A stretch of DNA of 13,381 nucleotides, from positions 1 to 13,381 of the forward strand of contig JBFWVI010000069.1 of NCBI GenBank assembly GCA_050246815.1. The letters are read 5' to 3'. Position 1 is the stretch's first letter; the number at the start of each line of letters is the position of its first letter. Source of the stretch: Bdellovibrionales bacterium (GTDB taxonomy: Bacteria; Bdellovibrionota; Bdellovibrionia; Bdellovibrionales; UBA1609). Position numbers and translations under genes: made by a program. The notes under the pieces were generated by a model, which saw only the letters and a program-made list of their open reading frames with translations, was not told the origin of the DNA and ran no database searches. Shown in pieces: positions 115-12,365 of this stretch.

Positions 115-1215
115 TTATCCACCCAGACTGACGGGGTCAAAGTTCACCGAAATTGAAGAACCCTGTGGTGGCACAGCCGTGCCCTGGAACATAATGCTAT
201 TGGCCACCGCGTTGTAGTACCAGCCGTTACCGGGGCTGGTGGAAACATTCGGTACGTCAACACCATTGATTTTGACCGCGATGGTGGATTCGATCGGGAT
301 GCGGCTTAAGTAAAACTGAGTCGAAAGTTCAAGGATGTTGTCTGCGATCAAAGACAAGCCGGTGGCGAAGTTGCCACAAAGCGAAAAACGGGTACCGCCA
401 GTCAGATCAGCCAACTGATTCACTCGGGTGGCAATGCGACGGCCTGCCCCCAAGGAATCACGGCAAGCCACATCTTGAATGGCGATCGAATGAACATTGT
501 ACCTGCGGCGAGTGTCCGTCGAACCAGTCAGGGTGTCCAAGTGCTGTTTGTAGCTGGCCACGGTATGCAGATTGGTGTTGCTGTACTGGCCATCCAAATA
601 GTTCGTGCCGTCGTGACTGAAATCATCTTCATCGGTCAGAATTATCACCGCCAAAAAGCTTTCTGCGCGTAAAAAGCCAGCATTTAAGGTGCTGTCCAAA
701 GCGACTTTCATGCTTTGGAACATGCGCTCATCACCCAGTCCCGTCACCCCTAATGAAACGTTGGTTAAGAAGGTGCTTGCCAGATTGGGTGTCAGTTCGT
801 TCATCACAAACACACCGGAGTGGCTGGTGTAGCCATCGCGGAATCTGCTCCAGGTATTTTGCGCCTGCGCTTTCAGGTAATGATTAGAGGGCAGACTATT
901 GTAAATAGAAGTCATGGTGGGCAATGCGATGTAGTTGTCGGTGGCGGCTACACCCATTTGAAAATCCAAATTGCGATCGGCGAACCCCTCGATGAAGTTC
1001 GGAAAATTGTTGGCCAAATTGCTTTGAGAAGTGGCCATCGAGCCCGAATTGTCGACCACCCAGAGGATATCAATTTCGGTATTGCTTGATTGTGTGTTTT
1101 GCTGAAAGGTGTCGCCATCGGGTAAAATTGAGAACGAGGCGGTATCTTCGCCGCATCCTGTGGACGCGATCAAGACGGCCAGTAAACATGCGCCCAGCCA
1201 GATTTGAGTCCTCAT
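115..1215 (-). CDS. von Willebrand factor A (MIDAS) domain lipoprotein, putative surface adhesin of the myxobacterial/Bdellovibrio type
   Basis: DILWVVDNSGSM (DxSxS MIDAS motif), FLAVIILTDEDD and a beta-rich C-terminal domain. Lipoprotein signal MRTQIWLGACLLAVLIASTG-C. Start placed at ATG 1215 because AGGAGG (1230-1225) lies 9 nt upstream. Confidence 0.85.
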   Translation of the reverse strand: MRTQIWLGACLLAVLIASTGCGEDTASFSILPDGDTFQQNTQSSNTEIDILWVVDNSGSMATSQSNLANNFPNFIEGFADRNLDFQMGVAATDNYIALPTMTSIYNSLPSNHYLKAQAQNTWSRFRDGYTSHSGVFVMNELTPNLASTFLTNVSLGVTGLGDERMFQSMKVALDSTLNAGFLRAESFLAVIILTDEDDFSHDGTNYLDGQYSNTNLHTVASYKQHLDTLTGSTDTRRRYNVHSIAIQDVACRDSLGAGRRIATRVNQLADLTGGTRFSLCGNFATGLSLIADNILELSTQFYLSRIPIESTIAVKINGVDVPNVSTSPGNGWYYNAVANSIMFQGTAVPPQGSSISVNFDPVSLGG

Positions 1216-1323
1216 ATGAATACCCCTCCTCAAAAAACCTTCGAAAATCAGCATTCTCGAATTCACTTATGAGTCCGCGTAGTCGACGCGGGGCAGGGGA
1301 TACATGCAACACTCACATATAGC

Positions 1324-1632: not shown

Positions 1633-1661
1633 TGGTCGATTTTGAGATTCGTATCTATACT
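1633..1661 (+). promoter_or_regulatory. putative sigma70 promoter of the small transcript, overlapped by an inverted repeat
   Basis: TGGTCG-N17-TATACT. AATCGA-tctgg-TCGATT (1625-1641) overlaps the -35. The predicted start (~1668-1670) falls just before a small hairpin. Confidence 0.4.
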
Positions 1662-1702
1662 GCTGTTCAATGCCCTCAAGGGCGAGGAAGGAGGTGGTGC
1701 TA

Positions 1703-1750
1703 ATGGTTAAACCAGTAAGTAAACCAATGGCGGAGGTGATCGCCACCTAA
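1703..1750 (+). CDS. 15-aa small ORF MVKPVSKPMAEVIAT
   Basis: AAGGAGGTG (1688-1696) 6 nt before ATG 1703; TAA at 1748-1750. Confidence 0.5.
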   Translation: MVKPVSKPMAEVIAT

Positions 1751-1814
1751 TCTTTATCAGTCTTTGTGATTGATAATTAGAAAAGGTAGGCGAGTCATTT
1801 TCGCCGTAATCCTT

Positions 1815-1850
1815 ACGAGCCAGAGATCACTCTCTGGCTCGTTTCATTTT
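1815..1850 (+). terminator. intrinsic terminator
   Basis: Perfect 12-bp stem ACGAGCCAGAGA-tcac-TCTCTGGCTCGT followed by TTCATTTT on the + strand. It abuts the stop codon of the convergent permease, so it may act in both directions. Confidence 0.8.
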
Positions 1851-4324
1851 GGGGCCCTTGTCCCCAACCAAATCGGCAGACTACACAAGAAAAAGCTGAT
1901 CAACCCAAGCAGCAGGACCAGGCCGTATTCCTGGGGAAGAGTCCAACGATCAAAAACTTGTTTAACAACCACAGTGGAAAGTCCCAGTCCAATCAAGGTT
2001 CCAGTTAAAAGTGCGGAGCCCGCCAACCAAATGTTTTCACGTGTGAAAAGTGATCTTAATTGGCTACGGCTTGCGCCCAACCACATCAATAGGTTTCTTT
2101 CGTCTTGGCGTTCTTGCCACAAATGCGCTGAAAGCAAAGAGACCAGAAGCAACACCACGCCAAGGCCAGTAAGGGATATGGCGGCGATCGGCAAAATTAA
2201 TTTGCTGACGATTTCACTCAAGCGATCAATTGTGGTGGCCAAGTTGAGAAGTGACAGGCTTGGGAATAGTCGGCTTAATCGGCCTTGTGCCGCAAAAATC
2301 TCTTTTTCTGGTAAGCCATAAATAACAGCTATATAAGATTTAGGGAATTCCTCCAAAACCCCACCCGCGAATTGCATGAAAAAATTGGGTTGAAAGGTGT
2401 TCCACTTTACCGTGCGAAGGTTTTGAACTTGAGCGATCAACGGAAGCCCTGAAACCTCAAATTCAACTTCGTCGCCAATCGTGAGATTATTGCGTTTGGC
2501 GAATTCAATTTCGACTGAAATGCCCGGTAGGCCTTGACCATTAAACAGGGCTGGTAGCGCTTGCCCCGCCACGATTCGTTCGGCCGTGGTCAGTTTTTCA
2601 CGAAAAGTTAATCGCACGGGAAAGCGAGAAATCCATCCCTCGCGCACGGGTTCATTGTTAATTTTCAGAAGGCGCGCCAAAATCAAGGGTGAAGGATGGC
2701 GCAGTTCGGCACCCTCTTTGGCGACCGCATTTTTAAATGGTTCAACATCTTCAGGGCGCACGTTGATAGCAAAAAGTTGCGGCAGGTCACGTTCGCGTGG
2801 CGATTTTAATTCATGGCGGGCCTGCGCCAAGAGATCAGGAATCACCGCACACAAGGTCGCGCTCCAGGCTAAAGCCACCCACACCAATGTGGTCAGCAGG
2901 CGTGGACGAGCCAAGCCCAACCAGGCCAATCGATTGAGCCCCGTTTTTTGCGAACGACGTCCTAATTGAGCGGCCCATGCGGGTAAGCCCTGGCTTGCCA
3001 AAGCCACAAAGCCGATCAAGGTGAGGCTGATCACTGTCGCCACTAGCCACGATTGCTGCAACCACGCTGCCACGGTTGAATAGCCGATCATGGCCAGGCT
3101 GTAGGGCAGTAGATCCTCGCGAGGTCGCGCCATAGGCAGGCTGGGGGCAGATTGATTCAGCAAAACGTCTGGCTCAAGTCTGCGAAAACGAAATGCAAAG
3201 GGCAGAGCAAAAATCAGCGTGTTCATCAGCATTAGGCCAAATGCGATCAAGTAAGATTTTGCTCCCAAGAACAAATACGCGCCGGACGTCAACTGCTGCA
3301 CAATTGGGTTTAAAGATGCAAAAACCACGAGCGTTGCGCCGGCGGCAAGGATCCAGGCTGCAAACATCAATGTTAGGATCTGTAGTGCTGCACCGACTTC
3401 AAGCCACAATGGACGAGCGCCAAAAAGCAAACTCAAGGCTAGGGTCAGAGCTCGGCTGCGCAAGTGGATTTGCAAAAGATAAAACCCACTAATGAAGCCA
3501 AGTAACATCAACAATAAGGTGATCAGACTTAAATAGCTTTCGGCGTAGCCGATGCCTCTTTGCACGCCTGTGATGGCATCCTGGGGAGAGCGGATTACCA
3601 ATTCTTCCGGCCAGTCGATCAACCTGTTTTTTAACTTTTCCACGCTAGACAAATCGTCCGGCTGGGTTTGTGATTTAGAAAACAAGATCGTACTTCGATA
3701 CTGCACCTGGCTTCCGGGTTGGATCAAACCTGTCTCTTGCAGGTCGTCAAGTGAGATGTAGGCGCGTGGAGCAAAACCTGTTGCACCTCTTCGCAGACCC
3801 ACATCGGCATTGATCCAGCCGGTGATTTTGAATGTCAAACTGCCAATCCTGACGGCATCTTGGCGATTGAGCTTCATGCTTTGCCGCAGTTCATCGGCCA
3901 GCCAGATTTCACCACGGCGCAAATTTTTAAAGTCCGCTTTTGAATCGTTTTCGAGCAAAACTTGTCCAACCAGCGGAAAACTTTCGGTCACGGCCTTTAG
4001 TTCAACCAGCGTAGCGCCGTCAGTTGCGCGAAGGCTGGCGTGCAAATCTACTTCTGTCGATAATGCCTGAGGTTGGAAGACTTGTTTGAAGTGATTCAGT
4101 TCTTGTTCGGTGGCGGCGCGATTGGCTAAAATTTGCGCGTCTCCTGTCAATAACTCACGAGCTTTCCCTAAGATCAGTGTCTGCTGTGATTCGCGAAGTC
4201 CCAAGGATAAAAAGAGCGCGAAAAAGCCGACTGTCAGAGCGATCAAGGTTACGGATTGGGCTCTTCGAGTTCGCCATAAATCCAAAATATTCAAGCGTAG
4301 CACGGTCCACAGCGGGTGATTCAC
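1844..4324 (-). CDS. ABC transporter permease, FtsX-like / YbbP family
   Basis: 826 aa with two repeats of periplasmic domain plus TM cluster; motifs ARELLTGD, PQLFAINV, VKWNTFQPNFFM and LGASRSQL. GTG start overlaps the ATPase stop (GTGA). Confidence 0.9.
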   Translation of the reverse strand: MNHPLWTVLRLNILDLWRTRRAQSVTLIALTVGFFALFLSLGLRESQQTLILGKARELLTGDAQILANRAATEQELNHFKQVFQPQALSTEVDLHASLRATDGATLVELKAVTESFPLVGQVLLENDSKADFKNLRRGEIWLADELRQSMKLNRQDAVRIGSLTFKITGWINADVGLRRGATGFAPRAYISLDDLQETGLIQPGSQVQYRSTILFSKSQTQPDDLSSVEKLKNRLIDWPEELVIRSPQDAITGVQRGIGYAESYLSLITLLLMLLGFISGFYLLQIHLRSRALTLALSLLFGARPLWLEVGAALQILTLMFAAWILAAGATLVVFASLNPIVQQLTSGAYLFLGAKSYLIAFGLMLMNTLIFALPFAFRFRRLEPDVLLNQSAPSLPMARPREDLLPYSLAMIGYSTVAAWLQQSWLVATVISLTLIGFVALASQGLPAWAAQLGRRSQKTGLNRLAWLGLARPRLLTTLVWVALAWSATLCAVIPDLLAQARHELKSPRERDLPQLFAINVRPEDVEPFKNAVAKEGAELRHPSPLILARLLKINNEPVREGWISRFPVRLTFREKLTTAERIVAGQALPALFNGQGLPGISVEIEFAKRNNLTIGDEVEFEVSGLPLIAQVQNLRTVKWNTFQPNFFMQFAGGVLEEFPKSYIAVIYGLPEKEIFAAQGRLSRLFPSLSLLNLATTIDRLSEIVSKLILPIAAISLTGLGVVLLLVSLLSAHLWQERQDERNLLMWLGASRSQLRSLFTRENIWLAGSALLTGTLIGLGLSTVVVKQVFDRWTLPQEYGLVLLLGLISFFLCSLPIWLGTRAPK

Positions 4325-12059: not shown

Positions 12060-12365
12060 ATGGCAAAACTGAGCAAGATCAATAAGAACAACTACCGTCG
12101 CAAACTTTCGACAAAATACGGCCCTATTCGCGCTGAATTGCGTGCAAAAGCCGTCGATATGAAGCTGTCGGATGAAGAGCGTCAGGCAGCCCGTTTGAAA
12201 TTGCAAAAGATGCCACGTGACACTTCGCCGATTCGCGTGCGTAGTCGATGTGAACTGACAGGGCGCCCTCGCGGCAACCTGCGCAAGTTCGGTTTGAGCC
12301 GCATGAAGTTTCGTCAGCTTGCGCATCGTGGTGCAATCCCTGGCGTGACCAAAGCGAGCTGGTAA
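12060..12365 (+). CDS. rpsN: 30S ribosomal protein S14, long Zn-independent (C-) form
   Basis: MAKLSKI...[48 protein letters not shown]; 101 aa with only one Cys. AAAGGTG upstream. Confidence 0.98.

Follow-up and report, generated by a model that had tools for sequence, protein, structure and literature searches.

The window, a 13,381-nt stretch of a Bdellovibrionales contig, contains between two minus-strand genes a small plus-strand unit that is real and is conserved across the phylum. Judged by its sequence features, the family to which it belongs is likely a translated mini-mRNA, and on balance the single-copy, phylum-wide layout would act by tethering ribosomes and not through its peptide. 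An earlier sequence-only reading of the window had proposed a structured small RNA that stands alone, is unannotated and contains a short open reading frame (ORF), which the conserved layout in relatives bears out; it had left the choice between an sRNA and a micropeptide gene, and on that point the findings speak more for the RNA and for its being translated than for the peptide. The likely ortholog in Bdellovibrio bacteriovorus HD100 is APsRNA2, which was published as 'non-coding, species-specific' and may have to be reclassified as a likely translated, phylum-wide gene missed by annotation.

Parts of the unit, promoter and fold

The sequence-only reading had described a complete plus-strand unit between two minus-strand genes, and every element that it named was found in place. 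The unit and its surroundings comprise the following features.

115..1266, minus strand: divergent neighbour encoding a MIDAS-adhesin-like protein, outside the unit
1633..1638, plus strand: -35-like hexamer TGGTCG, 17 nt upstream of the -10 box, a weak, inferred assignment
1656..1661, plus strand: predicted -10 box, TATACT
1672..1683, plus strand: P1, the 5' hairpin GCCC-TCAA-GGGC, by folding
1686..1698, plus strand: SD1, an extended Shine-Dalgarno (SD) site, 13 contiguous nt against the 16S 3' region (two G-U, 9 Watson-Crick)
1688..1696, plus strand: SD1 core, AAGGAGGTG, by direct reading
1693..1725, plus strand: P2, a weak hairpin by prediction, which takes in the 3' half of SD1 together with the start codon
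1703..1750, plus strand: putative 15-codon ORF, MVKPVSKPMAEVIAT and a stop, with its ATG at 1703
1708 and 1720, plus strand: TAAACCA repeat, by direct reading
1727..1807, plus strand: P3, a long predicted hairpin masking SD2 and the end of the ORF (1795-1805 pairs with 1729-1739)
1732..1741, plus strand: SD2, an internal SD site, GGAGGTGATC, 8 nt upstream of the last sense codon
1815..1850, plus strand: predicted intrinsic terminator, with a 12-bp stem at 1815-1842 and the tail TTCATTTT at 1843-1850
1844..4324, minus strand: convergent neighbour encoding an FtsX-family ABC permease, outside the unit

The TATACT hexamer put forward as a -10 box is present, although a consensus promoter scan of the window returned no sigma-70 site at the unit; the site was missed because the -35 position reads TGGTCG. 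A TANNNT hexamer stands at the -10 position in 42 of 85 homologs versus 20 in a control window, and the fuller pattern TGGY..TANNNT is present in just 11 of the 85. The promoter of APsRNA2 is TATCAT followed by 7 nt and then +1, with TGG at a -35-like place (PMC3627812, in the part available), and since this homolog has a published start, transcription in the window is inferred to begin at 1669.

A hairpin resembling P1 (-3 kcal/mol or better) occurs in 84 of the 85 homologs versus 14 of 85 upstream control windows, and both proposed strong SD sites were located in the window. The plus strand of the unit folds with z = -7.4, none of 200 shuffles being equally good. Three back-to-back hairpins, as first described, do exist as local options (-7.3, -8.0 and -7.4 kcal/mol), but the preferred fold is the long hairpin 1727-1807 plus the terminator, and the segment 1726-1806 alone folds at -41.6 kcal/mol. 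The minus strand of the unit is likewise stable (z = -6.5); the window holds two weak minus-strand terminator-like stems, and no minus-strand promoter was found in it.

The U-tail could be read directly in the sequence, and a script detected a terminator in 76 of 85 homologs. In the window this tail overlaps the permease gene's stop codon, yet the same tail is kept in loci L002 and L003 despite different downstream genes. Beyond the element, the contig of the latter (L003:1-1020) carries rpmF and genes of DUF177-like and phosphatase-like type; these look unlike those of Bdellovibrionota, and the contig is possibly chimeric. The ortholog of the adhesin-like neighbour in locus L006 matches NF052240 at 3.7e-21, far below the family cut-off.

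With homopolymers excluded, SD1 is unique in the 3.4-Mb genome as a site that precedes a start codon and pairs over at least 12 contiguous nt with the 3' region of the 16S rRNA of this genome; the unit is single-copy and the two-SD layout was found once in the genome. Rfam, searched at both gathering and E-value level, gave 0 matches in the window, and the unit matched no tRNA or tmRNA. A 183-aa plus-strand ORF at 1770-2321, antisense to the permease gene, was set aside. Elsewhere in the window, 12060-12365 encodes a stand-alone rpsN (S14) outside the spc operon and without the CxxC zinc motif, which is probably a zinc-independent S14 paralog.

Distribution of the family

A DNA search of 41 relatives yielded two clear homologs and a weak one, all with 15-residue peptides ending in xEVxxx and the stop. 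When two GGAGGTG motifs were sought with the frame left free, 47 of 401 genomes of the phylum matched versus 5 for the reversed pattern, among the matches listed. A short ORF accompanied 43 of these 47 matches, and in 42 of the 43 GAG GTG lay in frame exactly three codons before the stop; the remaining 5 of the 47 were rejected as chance matches, lying in frames that are longer or rich in Gly.

From 45 non-redundant, SD2-containing members a sequence-only model was built. At an E-value of 0.05 or better it matched 74 of the 150 genomes sampled from the phylum, of which 21 were previously found, 41 more have the layout, 8 do not, and 4 fell outside inspection. The layout is thus verified in 62 of the 150 genomes, with one copy per genome, and members from all searches fall in 16 families. 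Common to them are a 5' hairpin, a 13-nt SD1, an ORF of 12-21 codons, a hairpin and a terminator, usually with SD2. A scan of a genome collection, which took only the variant without C before SD2 and, failing to pick up known members such as L203 and L212, is no guide to absence elsewhere, gave 9 matches, 6 of them with the layout and all 6 titled Bdellovibrionota, Bdellovibrionales or Bdellovibrionaceae.

Among 101 genomes of the phylum of a Lachnospiraceae record the model found 4 weak matches, none with the layout. Weak matches in 5 of 32 genomes of family f22 included three that were inspected and held no element, and families f26 (0 of 9 genomes) and f19 (0 of 4) had no model match. In viral contigs a loose pattern found at least 100 stretches, mostly repeats of Gly codons, and a strict pattern found 5 matches, including one look-alike in an actinophage-like contig.

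Several further small-ORF units were noted. The actinophage-like viral contigs L216:1502 and L227:1501 have an SD, an ATG and a frame of 14 codons, in which GGGAGGTG stands three codons ahead of the stop; a hairpin comes next. The metagenome contigs L267:1202, L271 and L289:1202 (62-65% GC) have the two-SD layout, 14-codon ORFs and a hairpin hiding SD2, and one neighbour in L267 resembles Myxococcota proteins; L267 and L289 score 20-27 bits with the model (L271 has no score), barely above the noise from Gly repeats, and a range beyond the phylum is a lead only. Family f25 genomes (L353, L354 and L361) carry another small-ORF family with a strong SD and the motif MKxTxxxxxSHRKAExKL, with several model matches per genome; two of its peptides have a hydrophobic C-terminal stretch, and it looks type I toxin-like and may be multi-copy.

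A full-text literature search, with subscription journals and the supplement of PMC11109978 outside its coverage, returned no description of the family. The main text of PMC11109978, a survey of non-coding RNAs in 50 genomes, makes no mention of 'Bdellovibrio'.

Constraint on the two SD sites and the stop codon

Contiguous pairing of SD1 with 16S rRNA over 13 nt (G-U allowed) is found in 69 of 85 members; the Watson-Crick run has a median of 10 and a maximum of 13 in the family, and the maximum with G-U is 15, all scored against the 16S of the window's genome. The site alternates between GGAGGUG and GGGGGUG and the start codon between AUG and GUG (ATG in 71 and GTG in 14 of 85 homologs), variation that is as expected for a working initiation site. 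ORF length in the 85 homologs ranges from 12 to 21 codons.

SD2 is most often placed 8 nt from the last sense codon, which is the spacing of SD1 to AUG (7-9 nt). With synonymous GAR GTN allowed, all 63 matches (61 elements) read GAG and none GAA, the codon that the window's genome prefers (28,815 versus 16,956 GAG), and the base before this GAG is G in 68 of 69 cases, across nine different codons. Some variants keep SD pairing and alter the peptide, such as GGG GTG in L237 and GGA GGA in another frame in L346, L334 and L339; at this place peptides may read GV, KV, GG or EG, and the ending is sometimes lost. With GAG never replaced by its synonym, and SD pairing retained in variants whose peptide differs, SD2 is conserved as nucleotides.

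An SD-like site 13-24 nt ahead of the end of the stop codon was detected by script in 36 of 40 members that the model had found, compared with 36 of 600 ends of ordinary genes; the former figure leans upward because the model was trained on SD2-containing sequences, and the members are kin. Of the 7 members that the model recognised by its 5' part only, 5 also have SD2. On reading, SD2 is in the main register in 26 of 41 model-found members, one of these being weakened; in 11 others it is displaced by 1-4 nt, and the remaining 4 do not have it. The five that did not pass for SD2 are L331, L347, L351 and L341 (by eye), which have none, and L247, in which it is weakened to GAAGGUG. In family f23 (L341, L347, L351, L348 and L369), 3 of 5 members show loss or weakening of the SD2 near the stop, and the family has a GGUGA/GGUGG motif 31-33 nt before the end of the stop instead, which makes it a natural test case for SD2. 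The idea of SD2 as a second start site was set aside, a start-like triplet following it in just 2 of 85 homologs, counted over the stretch that begins 10 nt ahead of the end of the stop codon and runs 1 nt beyond it. Stop codons in the 85 are UAG (48), UAA (33) and UGA (4); UGA ends 587 of 1916 genes in the genome.

A type I toxin mRNA or a CsrA-sponge RNA, either of which might be suggested by a strong hidden SD and a fold-back structure, is extremely improbable. The genome does encode CsrA and the window copy has two GGA motifs, but SD1 is GGGGGUG in 18 of 40 members, and 17 of 40 have no GGA around it. The family is single-copy, and its peptides are not hydrophobic helices: GRAVY averages 0.04 with a maximum of 1.37 (n = 85) and is 0.57 in the window, in agreement with the initial view that this peptide is unlike a hydrophobic toxin helix.

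The encoded peptide

The ratio pN/pS is 1.01 across 39 nearest-neighbour pairs, and by this measure the peptide shows no extra purifying selection, although a value near 1 can instead reflect RNA structure constraining synonymous sites as much as protein does the others. The two KP dipeptides and the TAAACCA repeat noted at first are present in the window but private to it, with no conservation, and the KP repeat was discarded as a signal.

A micropeptide gene, in which a Ser/Thr-rich peptide of 12-21 residues would be the product and the SD sites would only set its yield, for instance by re-initiation, is regarded as unlikely. The frame is always open, length changes in whole codons, the start codon is always kept and the xEV ending is common, all as such a gene would have it, and the rreB and rreR peptides of Alphaproteobacteria are conserved within clades (PMC5711450, in part). 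Against this, pN/pS is close to 1, EV gives way to GV, KV or GG or disappears, and recurrent motifs such as DIT, PST and SPT are explained by pairing of the middle of the ORF with the spacer/AUG region, with which it covaries by base pairing.

Support for the hairpins

Covariation was assessed by own-versus-swapped duplex tests, with kinship uncorrected. In P1, P2 and P3 the member's own partners pair better than swapped ones (0 of 5000 permutations in both the training and the independent sets), and a control pairing of SD1 versus the 3' part is not significant (419 and 3947 of 5000). RNAalifold found no consensus pair in a MAFFT alignment of the 5' part, probably because P1 shifts by 1-2 nt relative to the SD anchor.

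Around SD1, the predicted mean probability of being unpaired is 0.62-0.81 at positions -4 to -1 and 0.24-0.44 at +3 to +15. SD2 is predicted to be open (P > 0.5) in 3 of 69 homologs and closed in 66. The strand that closes it, the P3 partner, is located anywhere from 0 to more than 40 nt past the stop, and because this position varies so widely, the fixed distance from SD2 to the stop is not a matter of hairpin geometry.

This strand also invites the reading of a trans-acting base-pairing or dual-function sRNA, in which translation would free the C-rich anti-SD strand to block other mRNAs. A CYUYCGCC-like C-rich sequence is indeed the sole recurrent 3' motif, and the RNA is stand-alone with phase-specific expression (PMC3627812, in part), but there is no further conserved 3' seed, and in L191, L194 and L195 the anti-SD strand begins 0-4 nt past the stop and would be inside the ribosome, leaving this reading quite improbable.

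Genomic context and expression

The neighbours of the unit vary and include cheA, aldehyde dehydrogenase, adhesin, HIT, aroB and other genes. In the window the next gene is convergent, as it is in 19 of 69 loci and, in a further count, in 23 of the 36 that could be assigned; where neighbours are co-oriented, they belong to unrelated families.

APsRNA2 was reported as a 134-nt RNA, called non-coding and said to have no homologs outside the species, with a mapped 5' end and no FliA promoter; it reaches 8,869 RPKM in attack phase versus 204 in growth phase, a 43-fold difference, and about 1% of tmRNA by the same figures (Karunker et al. 2013, PMC3627812, in the part available). The APsRNA2 sequence of Fig. 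S1 opens with the 5' hairpin and matches locus L021 by eye. With L021 as query, contigs from public RNA runs were examined; in 2 of 8 runs the locus is covered by a single unbroken contig, which gives no ends. Contigs start at 1479 of L021 in run X4 and at 1475-1478 in X13, from two studies, and at 1501 in X10, and they end at 1597-1614 in X14, X16 and X17; a loose end on one contig is presumably sequencing adapter. These ends are a weak hint only. As a separate observation, APsRNA5, the second most abundant attack-phase 'non-coding' RNA in that study (388,842 RPKM; PMC3627812 Fig. S1, in part), has AAAGGAG followed by a 29-codon ORF ending in GPP and a stop (by eye) and may be a missed small gene.

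The start at 535188 is shared by APsRNA2 and the cheA operon bd0578-580 (PMC3627812, in part), and RNA contigs from the 5' end extend into the next gene in two runs, as might be expected of a ribosome-mediated attenuator leader governing read-through to the next gene (in Bdellovibrio, the cheA operon). The length and layout are also like those of leader peptides, with SD-like sites near stops (cited in PMC5737721, in part). Several results nevertheless make such a leader very improbable. The expression of bd0578 in attack phase is 176 RPKM (PMC3627812, in part) against the 8,869 of APsRNA2, and therefore about 98% of transcripts would stop. Constrained folding (at equilibrium) predicts that a ribosome placed at the stop lowers terminator formation in only 1 of 76 cases, no regulatory codon run is conserved across homologs, and a next gene that is so often convergent or, where co-oriented, unrelated offers no constant target.

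Proposed mechanism

In the favoured ribosome-tethering reading, the unpaired purines of SD1 would give a 30S subunit its first foothold, from which it would open P2; once elongating, the ribosome would pull P3 apart and so lay SD2 bare. When the last codon occupies the P site and UAG or UAA the A site, pairing of SD2 to the tail of the 16S rRNA, in an initiation-like geometry, would delay release of the mRNA after termination, P3 otherwise keeping free 30S subunits away from SD2. The shortest ORF, of 12 codons, would just leave room for two ribosomes, ribosome footprint sizes being the basis of this fit. The RNA would keep its ribosomes, and how long it lasts or how fully it is occupied would serve as a readout of, or a local brake on, the capacity for termination and recycling in attack-phase cells, which do not grow, with a translation-dependent lifetime analogous to the start-codon-dependent turnover of rreB. 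When an SD precedes the stop, the mRNA is released 50-fold more slowly in vitro (Chen et al. 2017, PMC5737721, in part).

We lean towards a role of the RNA in gauging, or locally braking, termination and recycling, its own turnover depending on translation. A more specific and tentative version, which we hold possible if doubtful, is a two-station docking RNA, in which SD1 would hold an initiating ribosome and SD2, unmasked by translation, would clamp a terminating one at an RF1-type stop 11-20 codons downstream, the pair of ribosomes gauging or braking termination and recycling and helping to set the attack phase. If true, it would provide a mechanism, and a tractable model, for the unexplained rre-type mini-mRNAs. 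The proposal is directly testable, since a two-base synonymous change in APsRNA2 would separate the function of the RNA from that of the peptide. Bulk storage of ribosomes is unlikely because APsRNA2 is at about 1% of tmRNA, the window's genome encodes HPF/S30AE genes of its own, and 20-fold overexpression of rreB had no effect on growth (PMC5711450, in part).

Comparison with known systems

The likely orthology of APsRNA2 is drawn from its sequence, which like the window has a 5' hairpin, AAGGAGGTG, 15 codons (MVKNVDITKAEVTSS), GCG GAG GTG, three codons, TAG, an anti-SD strand and a terminator; the window differs in its longer P3 and different neighbours. The published description presents APsRNA2 as non-coding, with ORF, SD and family absent from it (PMC3627812, in the part available). 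The literature search found no link of APsRNA2 to this family and met its name in PMC3627812 alone, the supplement of PMC11109978 being outside coverage.

Short ORFs, hairpins and a terminator are also combined in attenuator leader peptides (trpL, thrL, hisL), and type I toxin mRNAs and dual-function sRNAs share a strong SD, a short ORF, a fold-back structure and a stand-alone gene. Unlike the former, this family has no regulatory codon run, no conserved downstream operon and a terminator predicted to be insensitive to ribosomes; unlike the latter, it has no hydrophobic helix, a single copy and no conserved seed. Attenuator leaders and SD-slowed post-termination complexes share with it the short ORF and an SD-like site before the stop (PMC5737721, in part). 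CsrB/RsmZ sponges were rejected, multiple GGA motifs in hairpin loops not being a feature of the unit, and so was 6S RNA, there being no RF00013 match and the genome having its own 6S on contig C66.

The closest parallel is rreB/rreR of Alphaproteobacteria, a stand-alone RNA of about 165 nt with an RpoD-like promoter, a terminator, an ORF of 14-18 codons, UAA/UAG stops and variable gene context, conserved without known function; rreB co-sediments with 30S subunits, is weakly translated and has start-codon-dependent turnover (Hahn et al. 2016, PMC5711450, in part). Both are stand-alone RNAs with their own promoter and terminator, the 5' end in this family being mapped for the Bdellovibrio homolog only. 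ORF lengths are comparable (15 codons in the window and 12-21 in homologs), UAG or UAA ends 81 of 85 ORFs here, and in rre, as by prediction in this family, the 5' bases of the SD are open and the remainder lies with the start codon in a hairpin. The differences are that rre has 16-17 nt of perfect 16S complementarity reaching a GUG start (ATG in Azospirillum), whereas here the pairing is 13 nt with G-U (9 Watson-Crick in the window) and the start is ATG in the window and GTG in 14 of 85 homologs. RF01867 (CC2171) was over its cut-off in 0 of 4 genomes, with one match at E = 4.3 on the element in G060. Because the 16-nt complementarity and the GUG start do not hold here and the RF01867 match is insignificant, the family is not assigned to rre. 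The rreB ORF (oligonucleotide table, by eye) has no GGAGG or GAGGT before its end, and a second SD is undescribed in the part of PMC5711450 available; the literature search likewise found no prior description of a stop-registered SD2 or of phylum-wide conservation, one supplement being outside its coverage. SD2 is thus a sharply constrained second feature, and it points at termination and recycling. By analogy, the best reading of the family is a ribosome-tethering mini-mRNA like rreB/rreR with an added clamp for the terminating ribosome, and it would tie the rre-type class to an attack-phase-specific RNA in a genetically tractable predator.
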